From Escherichia virus TH43, in sequence record MT446414.1: a stretch of DNA of 64,000 nt; one strand, given 5' to 3'. Positions within the stretch are counted from its first letter, which is position 1. Each line of letters begins with the position of its first letter. A program made the position numbers and the translations under genes. Shown piece by piece: positions 8,778-62,441 of this stretch. The notes under the pieces were generated by a model that did no database searches, had not been told where the DNA came from, and was given only the letters and a program-made list of their open reading frames with translations.

Positions 8778-8912
8778 GTGGAAGAAGTAAAAAGTTCTGA
8801 ATGGTGCTTGAAGCAACAAAAGCTCGCACAGGATGAAGGTCGTTTTGAAGACGCTAAAGCTTATGGTGAATTATTTCAAACATGGGTAGAACGAGAGGAG
8901 AAAGCTAAATGA
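8778..8912 (+). CDS. small hypothetical protein (GTG start, 44 aa)
   Basis: manual translation; RBS AGGAGA upstream. Confidence 0.3.
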   Translation: MEEVKSSEWCLKQQKLAQDEGRFEDAKAYGELFQTWVEREEKAK

Positions 8913-9076
8913 TGGACCTGATTCGTAAACCCGCCCCAAAGTGGAACATCTATTACCAAGATTCCACTGGTAAATTTCATAACCAACTGGTTTATACTGA
9001 TGAAGAGCGAGATGAAGTCGTTGCTCAGATTGAAGCAGATGGTGGTACAGTTCTCAAAATCTACGAAAGGAATTAA
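8912..9076 (+). CDS. small hypothetical protein (54 aa)
   Basis: manual translation; TGATG overlap. Confidence 0.3.
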   Translation: MDLIRKPAPKWNIYYQDSTGKFHNQLVYTDEERDEVVAQIEADGGTVLKIYERN

Positions 9077-9078
9077 TA

Positions 9079-9321
9079 GTGACTCTAACCTCTAAAGAAT
9101 TAAAAGAAACTCTGGAAACAACCGAAGGTAAACAACATCTCCTTGCACAGATTCACTCTATGGGTAAGGATACCTTACGTCAAGCTTTGTATGAACTGAC
9201 TACTGCTGTTATCCAGATTGAAGCTAACGCTGAAGAAAGTTTGATTAAGTTAGAAGCTGCTGATGCAGAGATCAATGGATTGAAGGTTCGTATTGCCGAG
9301 CTGGAAACACAAAATAAATAA
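9079..9321 (+). CDS. coiled-coil protein (GTG start)
   Basis: ORF track; terminator directly downstream. Confidence 0.45.
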   Translation: MTLTSKELKETLETTEGKQHLLAQIHSMGKDTLRQALYELTTAVIQIEANAEESLIKLEAADAEINGLKVRIAELETQNK

Positions 9322-9345
9322 GCTACCTTCGGGTGGCTTTTCTTG
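9321..9345 (+). terminator. rho-independent terminator
   Basis: AGCTACC-TTCG-GGTGGCT hairpin plus T-tract. Confidence 0.6.
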
Positions 9346-9359
9346 TATAAGGGGCTGGT

Positions 9360-9752
9360 ATGAAGATTGGCTTAGATTATGACGACACTTTTACAGCGGA
9401 CAAAGAGATGTGGACACATATCATAGGACTTATGAAGTCCCGTGGTCATGATGTTCGTATCGTGACTTACCGATTCGCTGAACCTAATGGGTATACAAAT
9501 GAAGAACTACTGGCAGATGCTGCTAGTCTAGATATCCCGGTTATCTTTTGCAATGGTGTTCAGAAGGATTCTGTTACCCAGAGCTTAGGTTTCTTTGTGG
9601 ATGTTTGGATTGATGACTTCCCTGTTGGTATTCCTAAAATGGACCACCTAGAAGGGATGCTGAAGGGCGTAAGACTTAACGACCTTAGAGCAGCACCTCC
9701 AGTAGAAATAGCTTCTCCTGTGTACTCTGAAGAGCCTCTGGTGATACGATGA
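9360..9752 (+). CDS. HAD-superfamily phosphatase-like protein
   Basis: HAD motif I LDYDDTF and motif IV WIDDF. Confidence 0.5.
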   Translation: MKIGLDYDDTFTADKEMWTHIIGLMKSRGHDVRIVTYRFAEPNGYTNEELLADAASLDIPVIFCNGVQKDSVTQSLGFFVDVWIDDFPVGIPKMDHLEGMLKGVRLNDLRAAPPVEIASPVYSEEPLVIR

Positions 9753-9928
9753 AAAAGTTCCTATGCTGGTCTATTGCCATTGCTCTATTTCTTTGGGTGA
9801 TGGATGCTCTTGGAGATTACAGTAAAGAAGATTGCGAGACTCGAATCTCAAAAGAGTTTAAATCAGAGACCAAGTGGGTTGACGGTCGCTGTTACATCAA
9901 GGATTGGGGGAGAGTCTTATCAAGATGA
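9749..9928 (+). CDS. small secreted/membrane protein (59 aa)
   Basis: manual translation MKKFLCWSIAIALFLWVMDA...; ATGA overlaps. Confidence 0.35.
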   Translation: MKKFLCWSIAIALFLWVMDALGDYSKEDCETRISKEFKSETKWVDGRCYIKDWGRVLSR

Positions 9929-10104
9929 AGAAATACAGCGTATGGTTTAATGAAGAAGAAGAGGGTTTTGATGAAGTTGGTGGTTGGGTTAATATCCTAA
10001 ACACAGACGACATAGAAGAGGCCGAGAAATGCGCCCTAAACTACAACTCTGGATATTATGAAAGAAATTGGGAGCACGATGAAATACTACAAAGTAGTTT
10101 ATAA
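9925..10104 (+). CDS. small acidic protein; paralog of 10672..10839
   Basis: shared VW..E..E...GGW..IL.TDD.EEAE....NY.YYE. Confidence 0.45.
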   Translation: MKKYSVWFNEEEEGFDEVGGWVNILNTDDIEEAEKCALNYNSGYYERNWEHDEILQSSL

Positions 10105-10264
10105 GTTAAATTTATACCTTCGTGGAACAGGAAGTCTTGAAGTGTCAGGGTGTAAAGTTGTAGAAGAAGAAAACCCTATTAAAGCTGTTGAGAAGGTTGA
10201 AGAGATTATCAAACTTGAAGAAATAGGAAGTTTTGAATTAGTCGATATTGAGGAAGTTAAATGA
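10079..10264 (+). CDS. small acidic protein
   Basis: ORF track 10058..10264; internal ATG 10079. Confidence 0.4.
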   Translation: MKYYKVVYKLNLYLRGTGSLEVSGCKVVEEENPIKAVEKVEEIIKLEEIGSFELVDIEEVK

Positions 10265-10485
10265 TCTACGTTCACACTTACACGATTGGAAAGAAGACAG
10301 TTGACCGAGTTCATACTGATGAATCCGAAGCTCAGGCTTCTCTAGCGGTTCTAGGTGGCAAGGTTAAAAATTATGTAGAGGCTAGTAAACCAGCTAGTAG
10401 CCCACCTGTTCTAGAGTATCTCGGAACAAATAATCCAGTCACAGCGATGACTATCATCAATAATAAACAGAGGGAGTTGTTGTAA
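10261..10485 (+). CDS. hypothetical protein
   Basis: ORF track. Confidence 0.45.
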   Translation: MIYVHTYTIGKKTVDRVHTDESEAQASLAVLGGKVKNYVEASKPASSPPVLEYLGTNNPVTAMTIINNKQRELL

Positions 10486-10688
10486 TGTCTAATATTTACG
10501 TCACACAAACTGTAGGACATATCAGTGATTACAAATACCAAGTGATTGCTGATCGGCATGAACTACTGACTTTTGTTGACCTTATGGCTCTGAAAGAAGA
10601 GGTTGATAAGCTGGTGTCAGATGAACAATCCCGACTCTTACAAGAGTCTCTCAGCGGAGATTATATCTGCGATGGCTGTACTATCTAA
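10485..10688 (+). CDS. hypothetical protein
   Basis: ORF track. Confidence 0.45.
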   Translation: MSNIYVTQTVGHISDYKYQVIADRHELLTFVDLMALKEEVDKLVSDEQSRLLQESLSGDYICDGCTI

Positions 10689-10839
10689 AAGGTTTAAAGT
10701 CTGGCTAGACGAAGGGGCTGAATATCCTGAAGGTTTTGGCTGGAGAGTGATTCTGGAAACAGACGATAGGGAGGAGGCTGAAACGAAAGCCGAATCCTTC
10801 AACTACTCATATTACGAGGACACGTACGAGAATGGCTGA
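10672..10839 (+). CDS. small acidic protein; paralog of 9925..10104
   Basis: ORF track 10603..10839; internal ATG 10672. Confidence 0.4.
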   Translation: MAVLSKRFKVWLDEGAEYPEGFGWRVILETDDREEAETKAESFNYSYYEDTYENG

Positions 10840-11452
10840 AGTTTACTTTGCAGGTGATGGTCACCTAGGCCATCGTAACATCTGTAATTTTAGAAAGAAG
10901 TTTAGCAGTATTGAAGAACATGACAAAGCTATCCTAGCAGCTTTTGACCATGTTACTAAACGTGATAAAACTTTCTTTACAGGTGATTGGGTGTTTGAGA
11001 AATACGCACTTGATATTATCGCTGAAGTGAAAGGAGAGAAACATCTTGTCCTAGGAAACCATGACAGATTAGAACTTCTCCCTGATATGATGAAAGTCTT
11101 TAGACACATCAGTGGTGATTATAAGTACAAAGAGTTTTGGGTAACTCATATTCCTATTCACTCTGATGAAATGAGAGGGAAGTATAATATCTATGCTCAT
11201 ACTCATAATTCTACTATTAAAGATTGGAGATACTTTTGTACTTCTATGGAACAAATTGATTATAGAGCTGTATCTCTGCAAGAGATTAGAAAAGAACTAG
11301 AAAGTAGGAAAGAGTGGGTAGCTTCTTTATTACAAAAAGATTATCCAATTACCAGCGAAGTACAAGAGATGTTAAGTAAACAAGCTGAATCTAACTCACC
11401 TTTTCAGAGAACAGTAGAACAAACTAGCTTTAAAGGTCTTTTAGAATGGTAG
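10832..11452 (+). CDS. calcineurin-like metallophosphoesterase
   Basis: GDGHLGH and LVLGNHD metal-binding motifs. Confidence 0.65.
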   Translation: MAEVYFAGDGHLGHRNICNFRKKFSSIEEHDKAILAAFDHVTKRDKTFFTGDWVFEKYALDIIAEVKGEKHLVLGNHDRLELLPDMMKVFRHISGDYKYKEFWVTHIPIHSDEMRGKYNIYAHTHNSTIKDWRYFCTSMEQIDYRAVSLQEIRKELESRKEWVASLLQKDYPITSEVQEMLSKQAESNSPFQRTVEQTSFKGLLEW

Positions 11453-11724
11453 AAGTTCTTGTTTTTAAGTTAAGTTAATTAGTTTTCTTTTGATTTTAAT
11501 AGAGAATCAAAGTCCTAGGAGTCCTCAACCTAAATCAAGGATTTCCTTAATTCTCTATTTTTATCTCGCAGGTGTCTCCTGCCCTTCGGTACTTGCAAGG
11601 GTTACGATGATTGCCCAATATACAAGCCTGCAATAGCTTTACTAGCTATACCATATATACATTACTACTTACTGTTATCTACTACCAAAAAGGTTATAGT
11701 ATAATAGAACCTTATCTGTATAGG

Positions 11725-11745
11725 TGTAATGTATATAGTATACCA
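11725..11745 (+). promoter_or_regulatory. candidate phage-specific promoter motif (GTGTAATGTATATAGTATACC)
   Basis: best copy of the TAATGTATATA motif, 50 nt upstream of the SSB-like gene. Confidence 0.4.
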
Positions 11746-11794
11746 ACCGCTCAAAGAGAGCAACAATCTTAAATTTATATAAGGAAATATTAAT

Positions 11795-12535
11795 ATGTCT
11801 ATGATCCCTGAACTGTCTGTATCCCGTAAATCCAACTACGATGTAATCCCTGATGGCGAGTACGAAGCACGCATTGTTCGTGTAGTAGGTTTAGGTGTTC
11901 ACAATCGTGACCCTTGGATTGACCCTAAGACCAAAGCAGTTACTCCTAAGAACCCAGCTTTCCGTATGGACTTGGCATTTGAACTGATTGGCGTTGACGC
12001 GACTGGTACAGATAATGATGGTAAGGCATTGGACCCACGTCCGGCTTGTCAGTTTAAATCCTTCGATGTAAACCCACGAGCTAAGAACTCTGGTATTCTG
12101 AACCTAATTAAAATGATCGACCCAAGTGTTCAAGCACTGAAAGGTGATTTGGGTTGGTTCAAAGATATGCTGCTTGGTCAGCCTGTCAACATTCTGGTTA
12201 ACTCTTACACCAACAAAGCTGGTGAGAAGAAAAACTCTATCAAGAGCATCACCCCCATCCCAACTAAGTATCGCGATGCTGTAGGTGCTCCTCGTAGTGA
12301 GTTGATCTTCTTCGAACCGTATGCTGAAACTGACGCTAACTTGGCTGCTTATCAAGCTATGTTCCCATTCCAACGTAACCTTCTGACCCAAGCTAACGAT
12401 GCTAAAAACATTCCTCTGGCTGGTCGTGAGGTTACTCGCGCTTCTGACACTGAACAGAAAGACGCGACTCCAAGTATCCCTACTATTAATGAAGAGCCGC
12501 AATCTACCTTTGAAGAAGATGACAGCCCTTTCTAA
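11795..12535 (+). CDS. candidate single-stranded DNA-binding protein with acidic C-terminal tail
   Basis: C-terminus FEEDDSPF; strong RBS; sits after a 340 bp noncoding region. Confidence 0.5.
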   Translation: MSMIPELSVSRKSNYDVIPDGEYEARIVRVVGLGVHNRDPWIDPKTKAVTPKNPAFRMDLAFELIGVDATGTDNDGKALDPRPACQFKSFDVNPRAKNSGILNLIKMIDPSVQALKGDLGWFKDMLLGQPVNILVNSYTNKAGEKKNSIKSITPIPTKYRDAVGAPRSELIFFEPYAETDANLAAYQAMFPFQRNLLTQANDAKNIPLAGREVTRASDTEQKDATPSIPTINEEPQSTFEEDDSPF

Positions 12536-12557
12536 TGAATCTCTCCTTGTAATAGCT

Positions 12558-12583
12558 TAGCCACCTTCGGGTGGCTTTTTTCG
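12558..12583 (+). terminator. rho-independent terminator
   Basis: AGCCACC-TTCG-GGTGGCT perfect hairpin plus TTTTTT. Confidence 0.65.
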
Positions 12584-12594
12584 TTGGAGTTAAA

Positions 12595-12942
12595 ATGGAA
12601 AAGCTTCAAAACAATATCGGCTTCTTAGTCTTTACAGCCCTTGTATTCTTTGGTGGGATGAAGTTTGAGCAATATCGAAATGATAGTAACACTCTTGACC
12701 AAGAGAAGAAACAACAAGAGATTGAGATTGAGAGAGCTAAGGCTGCTGATGAAGTAGCTCAGAAAGTTCTTACCAGTATAACCAACTGGAAGAAGAACAC
12801 AGAAACTGTTTATAAAGAGATGCATTATGAGAAGACTAAGCCAGTTTTTTACAATGTGTGCGCTAGCGATGAGTATGTCAGCTTGTTCAACGAGCGACAA
12901 CAGCAGGCAGCTAATGCCCTTACCAACAAACCTAAAAGCTGA
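12595..12942 (+). CDS. i-spanin-like protein (N-terminal TM helix, periplasmic coiled coil)
   Basis: TM IGFLVFTALVFFGG then a charged coiled-coil region. Confidence 0.45.
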   Translation: MEKLQNNIGFLVFTALVFFGGMKFEQYRNDSNTLDQEKKQQEIEIERAKAADEVAQKVLTSITNWKKNTETVYKEMHYEKTKPVFYNVCASDEYVSLFNERQQQAANALTNKPKS

Positions 12943-13087
12943 GTGTGATGTTGATCTCCCTTTGCTTCAGAGTGCACAGGGAGTGGCATTTGCAACGACA
13001 TTAGAGTGGTATCAGGATAATTATACAACCTGTGCTGCTAATCATAATGGTTTACTGAAAGCTCTCAAGGAGAGAGGAATACAATGA
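12854..13087 (+). CDS. o-spanin-like secreted lipoprotein candidate
   Basis: signal peptide MCALAMSMSAC; Pro-rich with Cys residues; starts inside 12595..12942 in a different frame. Confidence 0.4.
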   Translation: MCALAMSMSACSTSDNSRQLMPLPTNLKAECDVDLPLLQSAQGVAFATTLEWYQDNYTTCAANHNGLLKALKERGIQ

Positions 13088-13308
13088 TCAGAGCGGAACT
13101 TACAATACCAGAAGGTGTTACTCAATTTCATGCAGTATGGGAACATAATAATCAGATTTGGGGACGAACATTCAAATTCTTCATCAACGATGGTGAGTCT
13201 TATTGGGCTTATTATATAGCAGAAGATGATGAATGGGATAGAATTAGGCAACCTAGTGATCACATCCCTTGTCCTGACACAGCAATGTATTTGTTCTGTG
13301 TAGTTTAA
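13084..13308 (+). CDS. hypothetical protein
   Basis: ORF track. Confidence 0.45.
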   Translation: MIRAELTIPEGVTQFHAVWEHNNQIWGRTFKFFINDGESYWAYYIAEDDEWDRIRQPSDHIPCPDTAMYLFCVV

Positions 13309-13332
13309 TATAAAATAAGTTAAGGACGACTT

Positions 13333-13983
13333 ATGAAGAAGAAGACAACACCCACACGCTATCGTATTCATGGCATTCCTATTAAATATTATCCAACCTT
13401 CGATGAATTCTATCGAGAGAACTGGAAAGTTGTGCATCGCTATTTCATGTATGACATTAAAGATTATCACGAAGCAGAGGATGTTGCTCAGGAAGTGTTA
13501 CTGAACGCTTGGCGTTTTGTGTTCGCAAAGCAAGAAGAACTTCTGCTCACTGATGAAAAAGATATTGAACACATGACCTATCGTGTTAAGAATATCATCT
13601 GGTCTATTCGTTCTAATCGTCAGACAGTTGGAGATCGACGTATCTATTCTATTCCAGAGGCTGATATGTTTAGACCTCCTGAGATGAACTCATGGGAAAG
13701 TCCTTTAGAGATTGCGATGGATAAGCATGACTCTACTGGAGACCCATTCTTGGAATCTAGAATCTTTTTCTTCTTCCAAGACTTAAGTGATATTATGGAT
13801 ACCAAGAAAATGGCAAGCATGTTCTCTATGCTCTTCCTTGGAATACCTCATGATCATATTCAGCAGCAGTTAGGAATTTCACACGGAACCTTCTATCGCC
13901 GATATGCAGAGAATCGTGATCTGTATGAAGCTGTAGTAGAGAAGCACTTTGATAAAGAAGATCTTCAAGGGATGATTCAATAA
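13333..13983 (+). CDS. phage-encoded sigma factor (sigma-70 family, ECF-like)
   Basis: region 2-like RYFMYD...[14 protein letters not shown]; region 4 HTH-like [21 protein letters not shown]. Confidence 0.65.
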
Positions 13984-14579
13984 TGAGTAAACCATTAGTA
14001 GTAATTCTGAATGGACCTCCGGGTTGTGGTAAAGACACAATCGCTAATGCTTGGCTAGAATTCACTAAAGAGAACATCGAATTTAAGCCACATATAAAGG
14101 CTTTTAAGGAGCCTATGTACCGAGTTGCTGCTGCTGCATTAGGTATTCCTATTGACGAGTTCATGGAGCTGTATAGCGACCGTGAGTGGAAAGAACGAAG
14201 CCGTCCTGAATGGGGCGGTAAGTCAGTTCGAGATTTAATGATTGCAACTAGTGAGAGCTACTTGAAGCCAATGTTTGGTGACACCTGTATGGGTAAATTG
14301 GCTGTTAGTAGTATCAAACAACAACTGTTAGGACAGAAAGATGTTATCGTCTTCTCTGATGGTGGATTCAAAGCAGAGGTTTCAGAACTGGAAGAACAAT
14401 TCCATGTTCAAGTAGTTCAGATTCTTCGTGATGGTTGCACTTTTGAAGGAGACTCTCGTTCTTACATCGAAGGCAGTCAGAGAAACACATATTACCTAGT
14501 AAACGATTCTACTGTAGAAGATGCAATAGACTATTTAAATTGGATTGTTGTACGGACACGGAGAGATCTCTATGTCTGA
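13983..14579 (+). CDS. P-loop kinase, deoxynucleoside monophosphate kinase-like
   Basis: Walker A GPPGCGKDT. Confidence 0.55.
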   Translation: MSKPLVVILNGPPGCGKDTIANAWLEFTKENIEFKPHIKAFKEPMYRVAAAALGIPIDEFMELYSDREWKERSRPEWGGKSVRDLMIATSESYLKPMFGDTCMGKLAVSSIKQQLLGQKDVIVFSDGGFKAEVSELEEQFHVQVVQILRDGCTFEGDSRSYIEGSQRNTYYLVNDSTVEDAIDYLNWIVVRTRRDLYV

Positions 14580-48504: not shown

Positions 48505-48532
48505 TTGACATGTTTTTCCTTTAATATATAGT
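48505..48532 (+). promoter_or_regulatory. sigma70-type promoter (TTGACA-16-TATAGT)
   Basis: consensus -35 and near-consensus -10; ~40 nt upstream of gene at 48571. Confidence 0.6.
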
Positions 48533-50380: not shown

Positions 50381-50400
50381 CCAACCCGTAAGACTCTCTA

Positions 50401-51010: not shown

Positions 51011-51038
51011 TTGACACGTCGAATCGTTATGATAAGAT
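51011..51038 (+). promoter_or_regulatory. sigma70 promoter (TTGACA-16-TAAGAT)
   Basis: consensus -35; -10 TAAGAT. Confidence 0.55.
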
Positions 51039-51084
51039 GTGCACATGGTCAGCGATGACATAAAACATCCGGCACTAAGTGCCC

Positions 51085-51097
51085 CGCTCTTTAATAA
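51085..51097 (+). promoter_or_regulatory. boxA-like antitermination element (CGCTCTTTAATAA)
   Basis: preceded by hairpin GGCACTAAGTGCC; followed by TTTATC as in rrn leaders. Confidence 0.55.
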
Positions 51098-51172
51098 TTT
51101 ATCGTCTTGCCCTTTCGCAAAGATTCACGCGAGATAAGGGAAGAGAACAAAAAGAAGACGATAAAAAAAGAG

Positions 51173-51200
51173 TTGACAAGGTGAAACGTTCTGATAGAAT
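51173..51200 (+). promoter_or_regulatory. sigma70 promoter (TTGACA-16-TAGAAT) with A-rich UP-like element
   Basis: consensus -35, strong -10, A-tract upstream. Confidence 0.65.
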
Positions 51201-51223
51201 GTTCACTAAGCAGTAAGAAACAC

Positions 51224-51236
51224 CGCTCTTTAAAAA
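51224..51236 (+). promoter_or_regulatory. boxA-like antitermination element (CGCTCTTTAAAAA)
   Basis: ~25 nt downstream of promoter at 51173. Confidence 0.5.
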
Positions 51237-51340
51237 TATGAATCAGAAAGTTAAGCGCAACCGCTTACAATCTTGTTAATCCAATACGTGATTAACTGGT
51301 CATTCGAAAGAATAGACGAGAAAAAGATTTAAAAAAGTGG

Positions 51341-51369
51341 TTGACACGCTAAACAGGATGATTCATAAT
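51341..51369 (+). promoter_or_regulatory. sigma70 promoter (TTGACA-17-CATAAT) with A-rich UP-like element
   Basis: consensus -35, good -10, A-tract upstream. Confidence 0.65.
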
Positions 51370-55675: not shown

Positions 55676-55835
55676 GTTCACCACTGGTCACACTGTTCGC
55701 CTTGTTGGCGGTACTCAAACAGGTGTTATTCGTCGGAGAACAACGATTGATGGTGTTCTCTGTTATCTTGTTCAGTGGAATGGTGAATCCTCTCCTTCCT
55801 TCGAACGTCGTACTGATTTGGTGTTAATCAAATGA
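55644..55835 (+). CDS. small basic beta-rich protein
   Basis: ORF track 55473..55835; internal ATG. Confidence 0.4.
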   Translation: MRKQRMRSRVKFTTGHTVRLVGGTQTGVIRRRTTIDGVLCYLVQWNGESSPSFERRTDLVLIK

Positions 55836-56062
55836 AAATTAATCTCCCATCTTTAGTTGTTACTAAAAAGCTCAGCGATCTACGTCCGGGTGATGTATTC
55901 CGTCTACCAACTAACTCTGAACACCTCTATCTAAAGACAGACACCTGCCTGAATGATATGCATCGTGTGGTTGGTCTTCGTCAGGGAACACTATTCCAGT
56001 TACAGGAACATCATGAAGTTATCCCTGTATTTGATGTTCAAGTGACTAATATTGGTGGTTAA
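55832..56062 (+). CDS. small protein, PGDxF paralog family
   Basis: LSDLRPGDVFRL motif. Confidence 0.5.
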   Translation: MKINLPSLVVTKKLSDLRPGDVFRLPTNSEHLYLKTDTCLNDMHRVVGLRQGTLFQLQEHHEVIPVFDVQVTNIGG

Positions 56063-56287
56063 ATGAAGATTGACATTGATAGTACGCCAGAGGTTGTAAC
56101 TCTCGGAGACCTAAATCCGGGTGAAGTCTTCCAGTTTAACTACAATGAAACTCAATACTACATGCGTACTGCGTGTTATGGTGAAAACAAAAGTTATTTT
56201 GTTAACCTTTATACAGGTAAGCGTGATTCTGAGTGTAAATCGACTGTAGTCAGACCTGTACCTAACGCACAACTAACCAACAAGTAA
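56063..56287 (+). CDS. small protein, PGDxF paralog family
   Basis: LGDLNPGEVFQF motif. Confidence 0.5.
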   Translation: MKIDIDSTPEVVTLGDLNPGEVFQFNYNETQYYMRTACYGENKSYFVNLYTGKRDSECKSTVVRPVPNAQLTNK

Positions 56288-56296
56288 CATCGACTT

Positions 56297-56324
56297 ATAG
56301 CCCTTGTGCTTATCAGAGGGCTAT
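56297..56324 (+). repeat. conserved hairpin ATAGCCCT-N12-AGGGCTAT (copy 1 of 2)
   Basis: near-identical copy at 62206..62233. Confidence 0.6.
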
Positions 56325-56589
56325 GTGAGGATGTTCCTCAATTAACTATAATCTCAATGCCATATGGCTCACCGCTAGGGCGAGACTTGTCTCAAACATC
56401 CGGTGATAGACTAAAACCTGTTAATTTTCGAATGGCATTCCGATATGTAGGGGTATGTATCGGTTTGGGATAGAGAACAATCTAGGGGTAGAAAGTTCTC
56501 GACAGTTTGTACAAGCGGAAGCCTTAACGTGTAGGGCTTCCCTTTATATTAACTGGCAATCCTGCCTCCATTAACAAAGAGAGAACGTT

Positions 56590-56730
56590 ATGAAAAAGAC
56601 AACCAAACGTATGAACCGTCCTGAACGTATGGATGCAGTAGCAAATGGTGCTCTGAAGATTGAGTCTGCCATGCTCCGTCTGACAACTAACATCCGTAAA
56701 CGTCAGGGTGATTGGTTCTATGGCGGCTGA
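56590..56730 (+). CDS. small basic protein (46 aa)
   Basis: manual translation; RBS AAAGAGAGAA. Confidence 0.3.
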   Translation: MKKTTKRMNRPERMDAVANGALKIESAMLRLTTNIRKRQGDWFYGG

Positions 56731-56923
56731 GCATGACATTGGTATTCGTGAGATTATTCGTCTTGCGATAATTGACCATCCTAATAGTCGTGATGGTTTG
56801 TTGTTACAGATCTCTAAATGTCTCAATTGCGATCGGGATGTAGCAAAAGAGTTGTTCTATGCATTCCTGTATAATGCAGAAGATCGCTTCTTGAATAACA
56901 AACTGCGTAGTGCTTGCACTTAA
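56720..56923 (+). CDS. hypothetical protein
   Basis: ORF track 56708..56923; internal ATG. Confidence 0.45.
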   Translation: MAAEHDIGIREIIRLAIIDHPNSRDGLLLQISKCLNCDRDVAKELFYAFLYNAEDRFLNNKLRSACT

Positions 56924-56928
56924 ATAAG

Positions 56929-56960
56929 AGGCTGCCCTTCGGGGTGGCCTTTGTTGTTTT
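56929..56960 (+). terminator. rho-independent terminator
   Basis: GGCTGCCC-TTCG-GGGTGGCC hairpin plus T-rich tail. Confidence 0.55.
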
Positions 56961-57003
56961 AATTAAGGGGCAACTCTTACTTAAACTAACAAGAGAGGTT
57001 GGT

Positions 57004-57213
57004 ATGAACATTCGTTTAGTTCGTAAACAAGATGGCAGACAGGTTGTGCTAGGTGAGATTGTTTGTGCTGCACACAACCTACTCCCTGAAAAAGATGAAA
57101 CTATCTGGTTTGATGGAGAACAGCGCCGAGTATTATCGGTTGTTAAATCCTTTGAGCCAAAACGCAACAATGAAAAAGCTCTTACCTGTTGGTTTGAGGT
57201 TGACATTACATAA
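57004..57213 (+). CDS. small hypothetical protein
   Basis: same frame as track ORF 56914..57213; RBS AGAGAGG. Confidence 0.45.
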   Translation: MNIRLVRKQDGRQVVLGEIVCAAHNLLPEKDETIWFDGEQRRVLSVVKSFEPKRNNEKALTCWFEVDIT

Positions 57214-57222
57214 GGGGTTGAT

Positions 57223-57474
57223 GTGTTCAATCGTTTATTTGACCGTAAAGGTCGCACTGACATACTGATACCTTCTATCGGTGTGCCAGCTAAGTTCGGT
57301 GAGATACGTGCTGGTGACTTCTTCATGGAATCAGGTCGTCTTCATCTGAAGATCAACCTCGATCACGCTGTTGAAATCCTCAGTGATGATAAGCCAATCA
57401 TCGGCACTTCGGTGTACAGTGCAAACCATACTGTATTTGTTGTCAATGTTCAGATTGAGATTAAATCACCATGA
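57223..57474 (+). CDS. small protein, PGDxF paralog family (GTG start)
   Basis: FGEIRAGDFFM motif. Confidence 0.45.
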   Translation: MFNRLFDRKGRTDILIPSIGVPAKFGEIRAGDFFMESGRLHLKINLDHAVEILSDDKPIIGTSVYSANHTVFVVNVQIEIKSP

Positions 57475-57728
57475 AGACAAACTTCCGAGCAGCAGTTATT
57501 ACGAAAGTAATAGCAGTTGGCGATGTAATGATGCAGGTTCCTCTGAACACTCGTTACATTGCCATTGACCGAATGGGTTATGTGTGGGCTTGGAAGTGGA
57601 AGCCTACTTATAACGAACTGTTCGACGAATACCAGTGCGCTGGACCTTACATGCCAACCTTAATCGGTGTGTATGAAGATGGTCCTTGTCGTACTCCTCA
57701 GTTAATCGAACTACCGGCGTGTGCTTAA
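57471..57728 (+). CDS. hypothetical protein
   Basis: ORF track. Confidence 0.45.
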   Translation: MKTNFRAAVITKVIAVGDVMMQVPLNTRYIAIDRMGYVWAWKWKPTYNELFDEYQCAGPYMPTLIGVYEDGPCRTPQLIELPACA

Positions 57729-57729
57729 T

Positions 57730-57891
57730 ATGATTAAGTGGCTAAAGCGTGTCTTCCATTGTCATGATTGGAAGATTATTAACACCCGTCCTCTGGTCTA
57801 TACAGATTCAGATGGGAACAATGACAAGGGCACACGTTACGTTATTCAGTGTAAGGTGTGTGGTGATGTTAGTCATCGTGATGTAATCTAA
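57730..57891 (+). CDS. small zinc-ribbon protein, tandem paralog A (53 aa)
   Basis: manual translation MIKWLKRVFHCHDW...CKVCG. Confidence 0.4.
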   Translation: MIKWLKRVFHCHDWKIINTRPLVYTDSDGNNDKGTRYVIQCKVCGDVSHRDVI

Positions 57892-57900
57892 GGAATCATT

Positions 57901-58065
57901 ATGATTAAATGGTTCAAACGTCTATTTCATTTCCATGAGTGGGAAGATCTTTCTACTTATGAACTGACGATCACAAATAAACTTACTGACAGAGAGCGAC
58001 AAGGGTTGCGTATCTACTCTCGCTGTAAAGTGTGTGGTCTGCACAAGAAAACAGACCTGATTTAA
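57901..58065 (+). CDS. small zinc-ribbon protein, tandem paralog B (54 aa)
   Basis: manual translation MIKWFKRLFHFHEW...CKVCG. Confidence 0.4.
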   Translation: MIKWFKRLFHFHEWEDLSTYELTITNKLTDRERQGLRIYSRCKVCGLHKKTDLI

Positions 58066-58073
58066 GGGGTGTT

Positions 58074-58283
58074 ATGTTCTTTCGTAAGAAAAAGCCCGAA
58101 GATTCTGGATGTAAACACGAGTGGGTGATCACTGAAAACCTTCAAATCACTCACGCTAAAGACACTCCAGTCGAGAGAAAAGAGTCTCGTGTATCTCGTA
58201 TCTGTAAACGCTGTTTGAAAATAGAACAGCATAAAGTTCCCGGTCATATCGGTCACGATGTGGCCTTGCGTATCTTCAGTTAA
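58074..58283 (+). CDS. small zinc-ribbon protein, tandem paralog C
   Basis: CKHEW...CKRC; same frame as track ORF 58032..58283. Confidence 0.4.
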   Translation: MFFRKKKPEDSGCKHEWVITENLQITHAKDTPVERKESRVSRICKRCLKIEQHKVPGHIGHDVALRIFS

Positions 58284-58317
58284 ACAAACTCAGCATCCTT
58301 AGCTCAATGGAGGGGTT

Positions 58318-58740
58318 TTGAAGATAGAGTTAGAATACCCCTTCGTTAATGACTGGCGATTGGGCTACTTAAGAACAAGCAGAGACGGTAGGAAGCGTGT
58401 TGATTTGTATAATACCGACACGGAGAGGACAACCATTTCTTACGCAAGATATTTAATGTCTTGTCACATAGGCAGGTACCTAACTGAAGACGAGGAGGTT
58501 GATCATATTGACAGAAATAAAACTAATGATGACATATCTAATCTTCAGATACTTTCCATAGAAAATCACAGAAAGAAGTCAACATTAGAAGCAACTACTG
58601 GAAGAACAATGATTTCAGTTGTTTGCTCTTATTGTGGAAGATCTTTTGAAAAAGAAAAGCGAAATGTTAAATATGCAAATTCTTTTTGTAACAGATCATG
58701 TGCAGGTAAGTATAACGGTTTCAAATCTATCGGGGCGTAG
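58318..58740 (+). CDS. HNH homing-endonuclease-like protein
   Basis: EEVDHIDRNKTNDDISNLQILSIENHRKK HNH motif. Confidence 0.55.
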   Translation: MKIELEYPFVNDWRLGYLRTSRDGRKRVDLYNTDTERTTISYARYLMSCHIGRYLTEDEEVDHIDRNKTNDDISNLQILSIENHRKKSTLEATTGRTMISVVCSYCGRSFEKEKRNVKYANSFCNRSCAGKYNGFKSIGA

Positions 58741-58806
58741 TCTAGTGGAACAGGCAGCGAGCTTCTAACTCGCCTTACGAGGGTTCGAATCCTTCCGTCC
58801 CGACCA
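58731..58806 (+). tRNA. tRNA-Arg (anticodon TCT)
   Basis: hand-folded 76 nt cloverleaf: 7 bp acceptor, D-loop with GG, anticodon loop CTTCTAA, T-loop TTCGAAT, encoded CCA. Confidence 0.8.
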
Positions 58807-58951
58807 ATTTTAAACAAGGGCTAGTATGGGTACGGCACCAGAGTTAGTGTATCCCTGTTGAGGCAAGTGCTTTTATAACAGTGGGAATTGCTTTCTTAGT
58901 GAGCTTCTGGTTCGATTCCAGATAGTCCACCAAATCAAATAGGAGGTGCTT

Positions 58952-59278
58952 ATGAGTTGGGGTGGTGTAATTACCTTAACCTGTATCTTTATCGCCTGTG
59001 TAGCTCTTACAGGCTGCGTACAGCATCGTCCTGATGGATGGTGTGCATTATCGGTAGAAGGTGTCTGTGTTTCCCGTTGGCATAGCGGGGAGAAGATTCC
59101 TAGTGGTGAAATTGATATGCGTTATGCTGGTGCTTCTTGTTCCAATGGCGGTGCTGTTGACGAGAAGGCTTATGCAAAGCGTGATATGGCTACCCAAGGT
59201 GATTGGTCACGTTATGACTTCATCTCCCGTGGTGAGCTGTGTGGTGGCTCTGTGACAACAACAGGTAAGGAGTGGTGA
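58952..59278 (+). CDS. lipoprotein (lipobox LTGC), Cys-rich
   Basis: signal peptide with lipobox ALTGC; RBS AGGAGG 5 nt upstream. Confidence 0.5.
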   Translation: MSWGGVITLTCIFIACVALTGCVQHRPDGWCALSVEGVCVSRWHSGEKIPSGEIDMRYAGASCSNGGAVDEKAYAKRDMATQGDWSRYDFISRGELCGGSVTTTGKEW

Positions 59279-59279
59279 T

Positions 59280-59534
59280 ATGTCCGGTCATTATTCTGAT
59301 ACGAAAGCTCTACTTGAAACAGCGGCTCAAACTTCATGCCAACAGCAAGTAAAAATGCTGTTGGTTGATATCCGTAATCTTCGTTGGCTTATTAAAGAAG
59401 GTCATCTCGGTAACGCTGCCTATTACAACGTTAAAGATATCCTTCGCCGCCAGCACTTTCTTATCCACGGAAACGTGGTAACTCGCAACTATCAATGGAA
59501 CGGTGAATGGTTACAGCAGCGTATGTCCTCCTGA
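59280..59534 (+). CDS. hypothetical protein
   Basis: ORF track. Confidence 0.45.
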   Translation: MSGHYSDTKALLETAAQTSCQQQVKMLLVDIRNLRWLIKEGHLGNAAYYNVKDILRRQHFLIHGNVVTRNYQWNGEWLQQRMSS

Positions 59535-59761
59535 TTTATGTTATTGGTTGGTGGTTGGCAGCCATTGTAGTTAAATGGTGCTTCAAAACCAATACACTCT
59601 ACAACTTCTTCCATTCCTCATGGAGTGGTAAGCCTGATGAATACTCTATTTGGACGGTGATATTCTTCTGGCCTTTTATGCTGATCTTTATCCTCTTCTT
59701 ACCTTTACTTATGTTGATAGGCTGGGTAATGGATAAGGTGACAGTCTTTATTACTAAGTAA
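59507..59761 (+). CDS. small membrane protein (2-3 TM helices)
   Basis: hydrophobic segments. Confidence 0.45.
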   Translation: MVTAAYVLLIYVIGWWLAAIVVKWCFKTNTLYNFFHSSWSGKPDEYSIWTVIFFWPFMLIFILFLPLLMLIGWVMDKVTVFITK

Positions 59762-59780
59762 TATCATCCTTGGAGTTTTT

Positions 59781-60029
59781 ATGTCTTCTAAAAAGAAAGA
59801 ACTGTTCAACAAACGCCTTTCTGATGCCCTTCAGTGGCGTCGTGATGTTGCTAATGGCTGCGTAAAAGCAAGCTATGAAACATTCAGTGGGTTTGATGAA
59901 ACCTATGCAGGGTTCAAAGGAAGCATCTCCTGTGATGATCTCGATAAGATTTGTGAAAAGTCTTATGAGATGGAAGATAATCTTTGTATTGGCTGGAGCA
60001 TGGGGGAGCTTCGTCCCAACACTAAGTAA
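59781..60029 (+). CDS. hypothetical protein
   Basis: ORF track. Confidence 0.45.
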   Translation: MSSKKKELFNKRLSDALQWRRDVANGCVKASYETFSGFDETYAGFKGSISCDDLDKICEKSYEMEDNLCIGWSMGELRPNTK

Positions 60030-60305
60030 TATCGTGAAGGATTCTTACGAGAGTCCTTTGAGATAGGACTTCAGATCTCCTATCAACTAACCGCTCAATG
60101 TTGAGCATTTTAATCACATAAGCCCCTCATGGGCTGGGTTTAATGCCGGTAAGCGTTTTATGCTATCCACTACAGCATCGGATTGTTAGGTCTTACATGC
60201 AACATTAATTAATAGGATATGGGAGGATTCGTCCCCTCCCCCTATTTATGAAAGCATTCTTCCGAGAGTTCTCTCATAAATTGGTCCATAACTAAAGGTG
60301 GTAAA

Positions 60306-60560
60306 ATGAAAGTTAACATGCCAGCAGGTAAAAATTCAATACCCCTCAGTGCTTTGCGACTTGGGGATTGCTTCATGTACCCTAACAGTGAAGATGGTGA
60401 TTTGTACATCTTACTGTCTACCGAGTTCTCAACTCGCTTGTGCATTAAGGGTGCGGACGAGCACAGACTTGTAGCCTGTCTTAACACAGGCCGAGCGACA
60501 GCGCCTCGTAAAGATGTTGCTGTTATTCCTATTAAAGCTGAAGCAATTATTAAGGAATAA
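60306..60560 (+). CDS. small protein, PGDxF paralog family
   Basis: LSALRLGDCFMY motif. Confidence 0.5.
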   Translation: MKVNMPAGKNSIPLSALRLGDCFMYPNSEDGDLYILLSTEFSTRLCIKGADEHRLVACLNTGRATAPRKDVAVIPIKAEAIIKE

Positions 60561-60563
60561 GCA

Positions 60564-60830
60564 ATGACAGTTCTTACTATCAATAAGACTCGTGTTGCAG
60601 ATATCCCTCTGACTGTTCAGGGGATTCTTCCCGGCTCTTTCTTTACCCTTAAAGAAGATAAAGAACAAACCCTTTACATGAAGGTAAACAAAAGCTCTAA
60701 CGGTTCTGAATACTCTCGAGCCGTGTCTATGCAGAGTGGGTACGTTCGTAATATGGCACCTAATATGCCAGTTGGTGTTGTATTTGAATCAGCAACTCTG
60801 GATTTAGTGGAGAAGGTTAGTGAAACGTAA
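60564..60830 (+). CDS. small protein, PGDxF paralog family (divergent)
   Basis: GILPGSFFTL motif. Confidence 0.45.
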   Translation: MTVLTINKTRVADIPLTVQGILPGSFFTLKEDKEQTLYMKVNKSSNGSEYSRAVSMQSGYVRNMAPNMPVGVVFESATLDLVEKVSET

Positions 60831-61092
60831 AGATCATCCAAAATATGTGTCACTATTGGATGCAGCCCTTCTCTGCACATATTGGCTCCTCATTGTTGTT
60901 GGTGTCGTGCTAATAATATGTGGTGTCGTACAGTTCTTTATGTATCTGCAAAGCGTGTTAGATATCACATTAGCTAACACTATAATCCTTGCAATTCTCG
61001 GTATTATTGCTTTCTGTGTGATTGTCTTCTTCGTTTGGTTATCTATGAACGACGACTCTACACACCTTCTATTGACAGGAGAAAATCAGTGA
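60820..61092 (+). CDS. small membrane protein (2 TM helices)
   Basis: hydrophobic segments. Confidence 0.45.
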   Translation: MKRKDHPKYVSLLDAALLCTYWLLIVVGVVLIICGVVQFFMYLQSVLDITLANTIILAILGIIAFCVIVFFVWLSMNDDSTHLLLTGENQ

Positions 61093-61273
61093 GAAAACGT
61101 GCCTACTCTGAAGAAGAAATGGTTAACCTGAAAGGCTTTGGTCAGCGACAGCCTGATGGCTCAGTTATCTGGTACATTAACGGACAGAAAAAGGCAAGTA
61201 AATAAGCCCTCTTCTCTCCTCCCTTTAGCTACTATGACGCCTCTCTTTTCGGCGCTGTTTTGGAGCTTCAAAA

Positions 61274-61687
61274 ATGGCTGGGAAACTCCCCAACGTAAGC
61301 AAGAAATTGGCCTACCTCACGTATAAAGAAAACATTGATCTTCTGGTCAAGCTTTATCCGGCTTCATTCAACAAGCAATTCCCTCTTCCTTTGGAGCTTA
61401 ACATCCATAAGGAAATAGCCCGTAAGACCGGTTGGTCAGCGGAGAAAACAAGCATGGTGCTCAACATCTGGACTACTCGTATGGAGTATGTGATGATGGC
61501 CTGTAGCACTGGTAAACGCTTCAAGCTGCACTCTGTAGCTATGAAGATTCGTAGTCCTATTGACCCTGAGCCAATGGCTGGGTTCAGCAGCCGTCTGAAA
61601 TCTTTCCGTGATCGTGGTCGTGTAGTGAAGTTTAAGCACGACTTCTCTTATAAGTTTGGATACGAAGCGTTCCAATTCGTTGTTTAA
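61274..61687 (+). CDS. ProQ/FinO-domain RNA-binding protein candidate
   Basis: LVKLYPASF...PLPLELNIHKEIARKTGWSAEKTSMVLNIWTTRMEY...GKRFKLH resembles the ProQ N-terminal domain (recalled). Confidence 0.5.
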   Translation: MAGKLPNVSKKLAYLTYKENIDLLVKLYPASFNKQFPLPLELNIHKEIARKTGWSAEKTSMVLNIWTTRMEYVMMACSTGKRFKLHSVAMKIRSPIDPEPMAGFSSRLKSFRDRGRVVKFKHDFSYKFGYEAFQFVV

Positions 61688-61715
61688 TCTCTCTTTAATA
61701 TAAGGTAATAGAAAC

Positions 61716-61949
61716 ATGTCTAAAGTTAGCGCAATTGATGCCATCCGCCAGCCGTTCCAGTTCCAGTCCAAATCAACCCAAACCTTCAGCGAACCTCGCC
61801 AGATTCGTCTGGGCGGCACAGAGAAATCTGTGTTTGATATTGCGAAAAATAAAAGCGTGACCATCGTCGAAGGTGGTGAGCTGGTTAATGTTTCCCATCG
61901 TATCCGCACTGGTAAAACTGCCAAAGATCGTGCTAAGAAAGGTCTGTAA
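61716..61949 (+). CDS. hypothetical protein
   Basis: ORF track. Confidence 0.45.
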   Translation: MSKVSAIDAIRQPFQFQSKSTQTFSEPRQIRLGGTEKSVFDIAKNKSVTIVEGGELVNVSHRIRTGKTAKDRAKKGL

Positions 61950-62200
61950 TGCAAATTGCTAATAAAACCCCTCCTGAATCAATTATCCAAGTAAAGGATA
62001 TGTCACCGGGAGATGTATTTCGTGCAACGGAATATCCGGGGGATTTCTTTATTCGAATCCCCTCAGCATCTGTTGGTGGTATCGCTAAACCGGTAACAGC
62101 AGTTCAGCTAAGTACGGGTCATCTCTTCCGTTTAGAGATTGATATGATTGTGATTCCTGTTCCAACAGCAATCCTCCGCTTCGACGGAGCCACAGAGTAA
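61949..62200 (+). CDS. small protein, PGDxF paralog family
   Basis: KDMSPGDVFRA motif. Confidence 0.5.
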   Translation: MQIANKTPPESIIQVKDMSPGDVFRATEYPGDFFIRIPSASVGGIAKPVTAVQLSTGHLFRLEIDMIVIPVPTAILRFDGATE

Positions 62201-62205
62201 CATCT

Positions 62206-62233
62206 ATAGCCCTTGTGAGTATCAGAGGGCTAT
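62206..62233 (+). repeat. conserved hairpin ATAGCCCT-N12-AGGGCTAT (copy 2 of 2)
   Basis: near-identical to 56297..56324. Confidence 0.6.
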
Positions 62234-62441
62234 GTGAGCTATTCTGGCTCAACTAACCTAAACTTAATTTAATCTTACCCGTATGGGGCCGATGCTAGGG
62301 AGAGGAACAGTCCTCGAACATCCGTCGGATAGAATATTTTAAGAGCAGGTTATCCACAGATATTGGGTGATATCTATTTAATTGGCCTTAAAGCTTGGCT
62401 CTCTTAGGAGAGTCCTTTTTTAAGTTCAAAGAAGAGGTTGT

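Follow-up and report, generated by a model that had tools for sequence, protein, structure and literature searches.

Five certain paralogues and one probable divergent copy of a small phage protein with a predicted SH3-like fold in Escherichia virus TH43

Introduction

The early genes of virulent phages are for the most part tiny ORFans that resist annotation. In phiEco32 and SU10, the gene block corresponding to the one analysed here forms the early class and is transcribed by the host sigma70 RNA polymerase (PMC4281155, PMC8948821); in SU10 the early coding sequences (CDSs) run from CDS 69 to CDS 125 and have a single promoter, followed by a terminator and then by three sigma70 promoters in the spacer (PMC4281155). 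The small early protein gp79 of phiEco32, the only one characterised in this phage group, inhibits sigma70 transcription and activates the phage sigma gp36; its described elements are a hydrophobic pocket and, at the N-terminus, an alpha-helix (alpha1) binding gp36, and a barrel is not mentioned (PMC12276001). Here we analysed a stretch of 64,000 nucleotides of Escherichia virus TH43 (sequence record MT446414.1), hereafter the window, and describe a family of small proteins encoded by five certain genes and one probable gene, designated m1 to m6, between positions 55832 and 62200. An earlier reading, made from the sequence only (the sequence-only reading), had proposed at least six paralogues with a common N-terminal motif in an early region, and had taken their number as a sign of diversifying selection.

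The closest described protein is gp21 of phage N4, which is a member of the same family: it matched the family hidden Markov model (HMM) at 3e-17, and its BFVD model was matched to the model of m1 with E 1e-4 and a template-modelling score (TM) of 0.76-0.78. PHROGs 16423, 9955, 7832, 12612, 6570, 7431, 8365 and 10911, together with 22099 for m3, hold the same family, all under the label 'unknown function'. N4 gp21 and these groups resemble the window proteins in size (70-90 amino acids, aa), motif pattern and setting among small early/middle genes, whereas N4 has one copy and the window has five plus one. Many diverged copies of a small protein are also known from the multigene families and 'genomic accordions' of viruses, such as the amplification of poxvirus K3L and the MGF families of African swine fever virus, and from the anti-CRISPR and anti-defence clusters of phages. 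The family described here is like them in that one small fold has many diverged copies, placed in an accessory part of the early genes, and in that the copy number rises and falls between relatives (1 to at least 15); it differs in that gene-wide positive selection was not detected, and the link to defence is an analogy. The gp79 protein is comparable in that it, too, is small, comes from the early operon in this phage group and acts by binding a host machine (PMC12276001). As a family member it was rejected: the family profile misses gp79 both in the PDB sequences and in phiEco32, and a helix and a pocket are what has been described in it. The VapX antitoxin of VapXD (PDB 6zn8) has no sequence similarity to the family, and the phage copies are without an adjacent toxin partner gene.

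Results

Paralogy of the small genes

The six ORFs (open reading frames) of the sequence-only reading were all found on the + strand, with products of 74-88 aa. They are m1 (55832..56062, 76 aa, phrog_16423), m2 (56063..56287, 74 aa, phrog_9955), m3 (57223..57474, 83 aa with a GTG start, PHROG 22099 only), m4 (60306..60560, 84 aa, phrog_7832), m5 (60564..60830, 88 aa, phrog_12612) and m6 (61949..62200, 83 aa, phrog_6570). Bas88, a close relative, has all six annotated as CDSs; every one of them is preceded by a purine-rich Shine-Dalgarno-like stretch or starts in a stop/start overlap. The genes are tightly packed: the starts of m1 (ATGA) and m6 overlap the stop of the upstream ORF, and the gaps within the pairs m1-m2 and m4-m5 are 0-3 nt, with m2 directly abutting m1 and m5 starting 3 nt 3' of m4. 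The m3 protein has a longer N-terminal tail, and m4 has a longer insert between beta2 and beta3.

The N-terminal motif on which the family had been proposed, hydrophobic-x-[DE]-[LI]-x-PG[DE]-[VFC]-F, was found in its strict form in m1 (LSDLRPGDVF) and m2 (LGDLNPGEVF) and not in the other four. A relaxed motif, [LIVMF]..[LIM]..G[DES][VFC]F, matched exactly the six ORFs and nothing else in the six-frame translation of the 64 kb, where shuffles gave 0.27 matches on average; because it was written after the six ORFs had been seen, it is not an independent test. The likeness spans the full length of the proteins and not the N-terminus alone, following L..L..G..F / Y-[MIL]-K / V.L..G / V.PV. The core pattern L..L..G..F / Y-[MIL]-[KR] / V.L..G / V.[PV]V, within a single domain of 70-90 aa, is present in m1, m2, m4, m5 and m6.

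When leave-one-out HMMs were built with no sequences but the window copies and run against the 742 window ORFs, m1 (1e-11), m2 (9e-8), m6 (4e-7) and m4 (3e-4) were recovered and m5 was not. For a broader test we used a family alignment of 125 sequences, from which all sequences more than 33% identical to the candidate were removed, and took the E values among the same 742 ORFs. The results showed that m1 (7e-18), m2 (5e-19), m4 (2e-16), m5 (3e-13) and m6 (2e-16) were all found, with hhalign probabilities of 97-99%. The PHROG models, which are independent, cross-matched as well: m1, m2, m4 and m6 each match several of phrog_16423, 9955, 7832, 6570 and 7431, and phrog_12612, to which m5 belongs, had a match to m6 (4e-7) and to 41 of the 125 family representatives. 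The pairwise identity among the copies is 21-32%, and m1 is the hub of the pairwise similarities. By these sequence comparisons, m1, m2, m4, m5 and m6 are paralogues beyond reasonable doubt. The view of the genes as diverged copies of one small fold was thus borne out by the low identity combined with full-length profile matches, and by the match of the m1 model to models of m2 and m5 relatives (see below).

The opposite explanation, that the motif is a chance similarity or that the ORFs are spurious or non-coding and share no common descent, can point to the strict motif fitting 2 of the 6 ORFs only and to m3, which is not significant by HMM alone. Against it stand the full-length profile E values of 1e-13 to 1e-19 after removal of close relatives, the cross-matches of the PHROG models, orthologues that are conserved with a ratio of nonsynonymous to synonymous substitutions (dN/dS) well below 1, the annotation of the genes in relatives, and the absence of DNA-level repeats, of which none were found inside the six genes. 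Chance similarity, which the sequence-only reading had named as what would overturn it, is refuted for the five copies by the alignment and the profiles, and we consider it extremely improbable as an account of the set. Profile scans found no seventh copy in the window. The number of paralogues is therefore given as five certain and one probable, since m3 is weaker and no further member was found; the 'at least' of the earlier count did not hold.

The m3 protein alone reached E 0.1 against the family HMM, which is not significant, yet in every scan it was the best non-member of the 742 ORFs; as a single sequence against the family profile cleared of sequences more than 33% identical, it gave E 0.12 and 64% by hhalign. 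When a profile of five m3 sequences was compared with the family profile by hhalign, the probability was 95.3% (E 2e-8) over 57 columns, which is the entire domain, and the m1 group matched the m3 group at 89% over 61 columns. Cross-matches were also seen between m1 and the HMM of the m3 group (7e-4) and between the family HMM and the m3 orthologue of TH34 (4e-4). Cronobacter and Salmonella phages have homologues of m3 as well. In phiEco32, the position of m3 is held by gp109, a family member, just 5' of gp108, which is 65% identical to window positions 57471-57728. The m3 protein carries only the first, second and last blocks of the core pattern and is without the second conserved Gly. Its AlphaFold (AF2) model was uninformative, because the alignment of five near-identical sequences is too shallow. 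Taken together, these comparisons make m3 a probable divergent member of the family.

Predicted fold and breadth of the family

AF2 predicted m1 as a five-stranded SH3-like barrel with a predicted local distance difference test score (pLDDT) of 83. By Foldseek, the m1 model matched about 24 small phage proteins in BFVD at E<1e-3, among them N4 gp21, proteins of N4-like phages (EP335, EcoN5) and proteins of the Kuravirus ES17. The BFVD models of the ECBP2 allele of m2 (J9RW27) and the SU7 orthologue of m5 (A0A8F3C9H7), which were predicted independently, matched it with TM 0.72-0.80. Structure prediction, which had been suggested as a check, thus gave a confident barrel for m1 that is shared by models of m2 and m5 relatives, and it gave no information for m3 (pLDDT 41). 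The family fold is accordingly described as a five-stranded SH3-like beta-barrel of about 75 residues, predicted with confidence for m1. A Foldseek search of the PDB with the m1 model had a best E of 0.07, and the family profile had no significant match among the PDB sequences, the best being bL25 at E 0.17. There is likeness at the level of the fold only to the C-terminal domain of uL2, the KOW domains of EF-P, eIF5A and Spt5, Tudor and PWWP domains, FeoA, the C-terminal SH3-like domain of DtxR, and the RNA-polymerase-binding Tudor-like domains of CarD and the UvrD C-terminus. No Pfam model of KOW (PF00467), Tudor or CarD_TRCF RID matched the family. A kinship with FeoA (PF04023), suspected from the L..L.PG motif, was dropped: there was no Pfam match, and hhalign of the family profile gave 0.3% probability against E. 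coli FeoA.

In Pfam, no match was found at E<=1 for the six ORFs and none at E<=0.01 for the 125 relatives, and neither NCBIfam nor PADLOC had a model for any of them. Weak library matches to FliMN_C, RLAN and DUF3114 were discarded as far under their cut-offs. When 1.84 billion representative proteins were scanned in full with HMMER, 499 representatives were retrieved at E<=1e-3, corresponding to about 500 clusters at 50% identity. Nearly all of the 499 are 70-90 aa long, are matched from end to end and typically start with 'MKI'; a handful of long repeat proteins among them (e.g. RCC1) are spurious. Two-domain tandem fusions account for 11 of the best 150 matches, and one protein (P0075) has five to six domains in one chain. 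The longer matches are tandem repeats of the family domain or spurious repeat proteins, and no other type of fusion was seen. When the 125 representatives were compared with PHROGs, 105 matched phrog_7832, 104 matched phrog_6570 and 92 matched phrog_7431, all labelled 'unknown function'. Since the same representatives match several separate groups, PHROGs has catalogued the family without joining it, and holds its pieces as at least eight unlinked groups. Nothing of relevance to the family came up in a literature search on the PHROG ids, the Kuravirus paralogues and N4 gp21. The first 50 kb of T4 were scanned and contained no family member. A tblastn search with the family consensus found only Kuravirus-type phages, and is too insensitive for mapping the distribution.

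Conservation pattern of the family

In the family profile, high information was found only at M2, I4, L15, L18, G21, F24, Y34, M35, V49, L51, G54, V65 and V68. All of these belong to the hydrophobic core or are one of two turn glycines; none of the polar positions is conserved. The 'PGD' residues of the proposed motif are themselves poorly kept across the family (P 14%, D 29%). The isoelectric points (pI) are 5.2-7.7 for the window members and 4.1-10.5 for the family, with a median of 5.8. Among m1 orthologues, the substitutions cluster in the N-terminal tail and at the hairpin tips. The family has no signal peptide, membrane segment, conserved catalytic residue or uniform charge. This pattern is that of a rigid scaffold with free surfaces, and it is unlike that of an enzyme, of a uniformly basic nucleic-acid binder or of an acidic DNA mimic. 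Because the hydrophobic core and two glycines are kept while all surface positions vary, we read the proteins as putative non-enzymatic binding modules.

The fold itself raises another explanation, namely that the copies are nucleic-acid-binding small barrels of the KOW, Sm or Sso7d/Cren7-like kind, which would bind phage or host RNA or DNA and not host proteins, and might for instance stabilise or process early transcripts or coat DNA. The nearest structures bind RNA or DNA (uL2, the KOW domains of EF-P/eIF5A and of Spt5, and PWWP with single-stranded DNA), a gene for a ProQ/FinO-like RNA-binding protein lies between m5 and m6, and conserved RNA hairpins occur 3' of m2 and m6. The family is not basic, however, as the pI values show, and it has no conserved Lys, Arg or aromatic surface position and no match to KOW or any other Pfam model. 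One common ligand would also hardly explain many diverged copies per genome. We regard this explanation as unlikely.

Early setting of the genes

The region from 55.3 to 62.7 kb is 93-96% identical to the ~77-kb E. coli podophages Bas88, HC-25922, NC-B, IME267, ECBP2 and EK010. ECBP2 and EK010 are classed in the Gordonclarkvirinae, genus Suseptimavirus, the sister genus of Kuravirus, to which phiEco32 belongs, and judged by its sequence the window is that of a Suseptimavirus/Kuravirus-type podophage of the Gordonclarkvirinae. At 1-15 kb its genes are on the + strand; a long structural block on the - strand occupies 16.7-47 kb, and from 48.5 kb onwards small + strand genes form a dense array that reaches the end. 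This last array is colinear with phiEco32 genes from about 128 down to 89, and the family region corresponds to about genes 91-115.

A consensus scan of the window detected near-consensus sigma70 sites at 48505, 51011, 51173 and 51341. The last three promoter-like sites (51011..51369, + strand) lie 5' of the co-directional early array, for which they are putative promoters. A terminator-like hairpin was found at 50400, so that promoters and terminator follow one another as in SU10. Because the array is colinear with the early genes of phiEco32 and SU10 and has the same layout of promoters and terminator, we infer that the six family genes are early genes read by the host RNA polymerase. The placing of the family in an early region was well founded in this respect.

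Copy number, turnover and selection

Copies were counted with the family HMM and the HMM of the m3 group. Five copies plus m3 are present in the window and in Bas88, four plus m3 in Bas87 and in EK010, six plus m3 in ECBP2 and seven plus m3 in TH34, while phiEco32 has nine (gp95-98, 104, 109, 113-115), LAMP three and N4 one. The largest expansion seen is on a 61-kb metagenomic contig with 32% GC (L009; ENA ERZ16268292 scaffold_2832), where 15 genes with 16 domains stand head to tail at 8832-14418; the range is thus 1 to at least 15 copies. The most variable slot in the close relatives is that of m2, with no gene in EK010 or Bas87; additional copies occur in ECBP2 and TH34, and two further slots also differ among relatives.

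The identity of orthologues is 78-87% for m1, 57-93% for m2, 66-99% for m5 and 60-99% for m6, and that of adjacent genes is 95-100%. Bas88, which plates on K-12 with O16 antigen, carries m3 to m6 at 98-100% identity. Allele replacement is visible in these sequences, in that some slots carry alleles much older than their flanks. Between phiEco32 and the window, the identity of family copies is never above 47%, and the neighbouring gene at 61716-61949 is 92% identical. The turnover of the family repertoire between the sister genera is almost complete.

The dN/dS of each window gene was calculated gene-wide against six relatives by the pairwise Nei-Gojobori method (NG86). The results showed values below 1 for every copy in all pairs (0.05-0.42), with medians of 0.22 for m1, 0.35 for m2, 0.09 for m3, 0.06 for m4, 0.15 for m5 and 0.11 for m6. 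The family median was 0.15 compared to 0.08 for the neighbouring early genes (Mann-Whitney p ~0.02, from pairs that are non-independent). With every pairwise value below 1, gene-wide positive selection was not shown, and the diversifying selection proposed by the sequence-only reading found no support here.

These data also bear on an anti-defence arsenal, in which each copy would inhibit a different immune system or variant and arrays would expand under defence pressure in the manner of genomic accordions. The genes are small and early, slots are gained or lost and alleles replaced among near-identical genomes, a 15-copy tandem array exists in another phage, and one distant family member adjoins a Gad2-like gene. 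In addition, the Gordonclarkvirinae are reported to show striking resistance to restriction-modification and to every other defence tested except one, and no inhibitor is known (PMC11990801). The BASEL authors, however, suspect DNA modification behind this resistance (PMC11990801). The dN/dS values below 1, the fixation of most copies in the genus and the lack of a match to any known anti-defence or defence model also count against an arsenal. It is a subset of the binder reading discussed below, with less support, and we hold it to be doubtful.

Neighbouring elements and genes

A 34-nt element, TATAGCCCTTGTG..TATCAGAGGGCTATGTGAG, was found on the + strand at 56296-56329 and 62205-62238, which is 9 nt past the m2 stop and 5 nt past the m6 stop. 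As RNA it folds into a stem of 10 bp (fold z -3.2 and -3.4) with a second hairpin after it, and it had no match in Rfam. The element is kept at both slots in Bas88, Bas87, EK010, ECBP2 and TH34, even where m2 is missing; phiEco32 has one copy, directly after the family member gp113, and LAMP also has one. It may be a transcript-processing or stabilising signal of the early operon. A 55-aa ORF at 56306-56473 (+), a CDS in the annotation of relatives, overlaps the conserved hairpin; it shows almost no divergence, with dN ~ dS (e.g. 0.038/0.035, 0.012/0.000), and a terminator-like hairpin follows at 56517-56541. Instead of a gene, positions 56290-56590 may represent conserved non-coding sequence.

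Between m3 and m4, three consecutive paralogous ORFs at 57721-57891, 57901-58065 and 58032-58283 (+) share W/F-K-R-x-F-H-x-H-x-W ... C-K-x-C-G, which looks like a motif of His/Cys zinc-ribbon type; they had no match in Pfam. An ORF at 58318-58740 (+) resembles HNH_3 homing endonucleases (Pfam 27.5 bits), and its 3' end overlaps the start of a tRNA-Arg(TCT) gene (58731-58806). It is probably a mobile element inserted recently, as six close relatives have nothing corresponding to it. Just 3' of the tRNA, the ORF at 58946-59278 (+) matched the Pfam 'Phage lipoprotein family' at 3.8e-36. An 82-aa ORF at 59781-60029 (+), just 5' of m4, has no orthologue in six related genomes, and the relatives differ at this place. 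The 137-aa product of 61274-61687 (+) matched ProQ/FinO at the Pfam threshold (27.2 vs 27 bits) and is 96-99% conserved in relatives.

Discussion

We propose that the copies are binding modules directed against host molecules, in a general host-takeover role, and put the probability of this reading at about 0.45. The genes, with m3 as the probable sixth, are paralogues of long standing that each encode a single free-standing domain of about 75 residues, and the proteins would be made early, from an operon dependent on the host RNA polymerase. Soon after genome entry, each copy would bind a different host macromolecule through its variable hairpin tips and loops, and binding would block or redirect the target. 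The targets would be those of host takeover, possibly including defence proteins. The neighbours m1 and m2, and likewise m4 and m5, may work together in pairs, since two to six such domains are joined in single proteins among relatives elsewhere. The repertoire would shift as genes are gained or lost, alleles replaced and arrays expanded in tandem, and not by detectable gene-wide positive selection. The defence resistance of the Gordonclarkvirinae is circumstantial support for these copies being binders.

Several observations weigh against this proposal. The SH3-like fold is generic, and many such barrels bind RNA or DNA and not proteins. Among the window copies a confident model was obtained for m1 alone, that of m3 being poor, and the literature holds no function or partner for any family member. 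All copies have a gene-wide dN/dS below 1; few genes of the region are more conserved than m3 and m4, m4 being 94-100% identical within the genus; and m1, m3, m4 and m5 are present in 21 of the 21 closest (Suseptimavirus-type) records. Such near-fixation looks like that of stable housekeeping functions of the infection cycle and not like an arms race. Moreover, the whole early region is strongly divergent between the genera and not the family alone, so that the family is only moderately special in its between-genus divergence.

A further and bolder form of the binder proposal is that the family is an evolvable phage binder scaffold, a rigid barrel of 75 residues whose loops are re-tuned copy by copy to neutralise host defence or housekeeping proteins and whose tandem arrays, of up to 15 copies or as chains of several fused domains, grow when a lineage meets new defences, which would partly explain the resistance of the Gordonclarkvirinae. 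It would be a natural counterpart of engineered SH3 and monobody libraries. We consider this extension speculative and rather improbable.

The SH3-like kind of fold was already known, and the sequences stood in databases as 'hypothetical'. What is new is that one family now takes in N4 gp21, some 500 metagenomic clusters and no fewer than eight PHROG groups so far listed separately as 'unknown', and that this family has a scaffold-and-surface pattern of conservation together with recurrent expansions of copy number. The result is a tractable set of six genes of about 250 bp in a common, therapeutically used and poorly studied phage group. Should the copies turn out to be inhibitors, each of them would lead to a host target; should they have no measurable effect, this would tell what share of its early genes a phage can do without.

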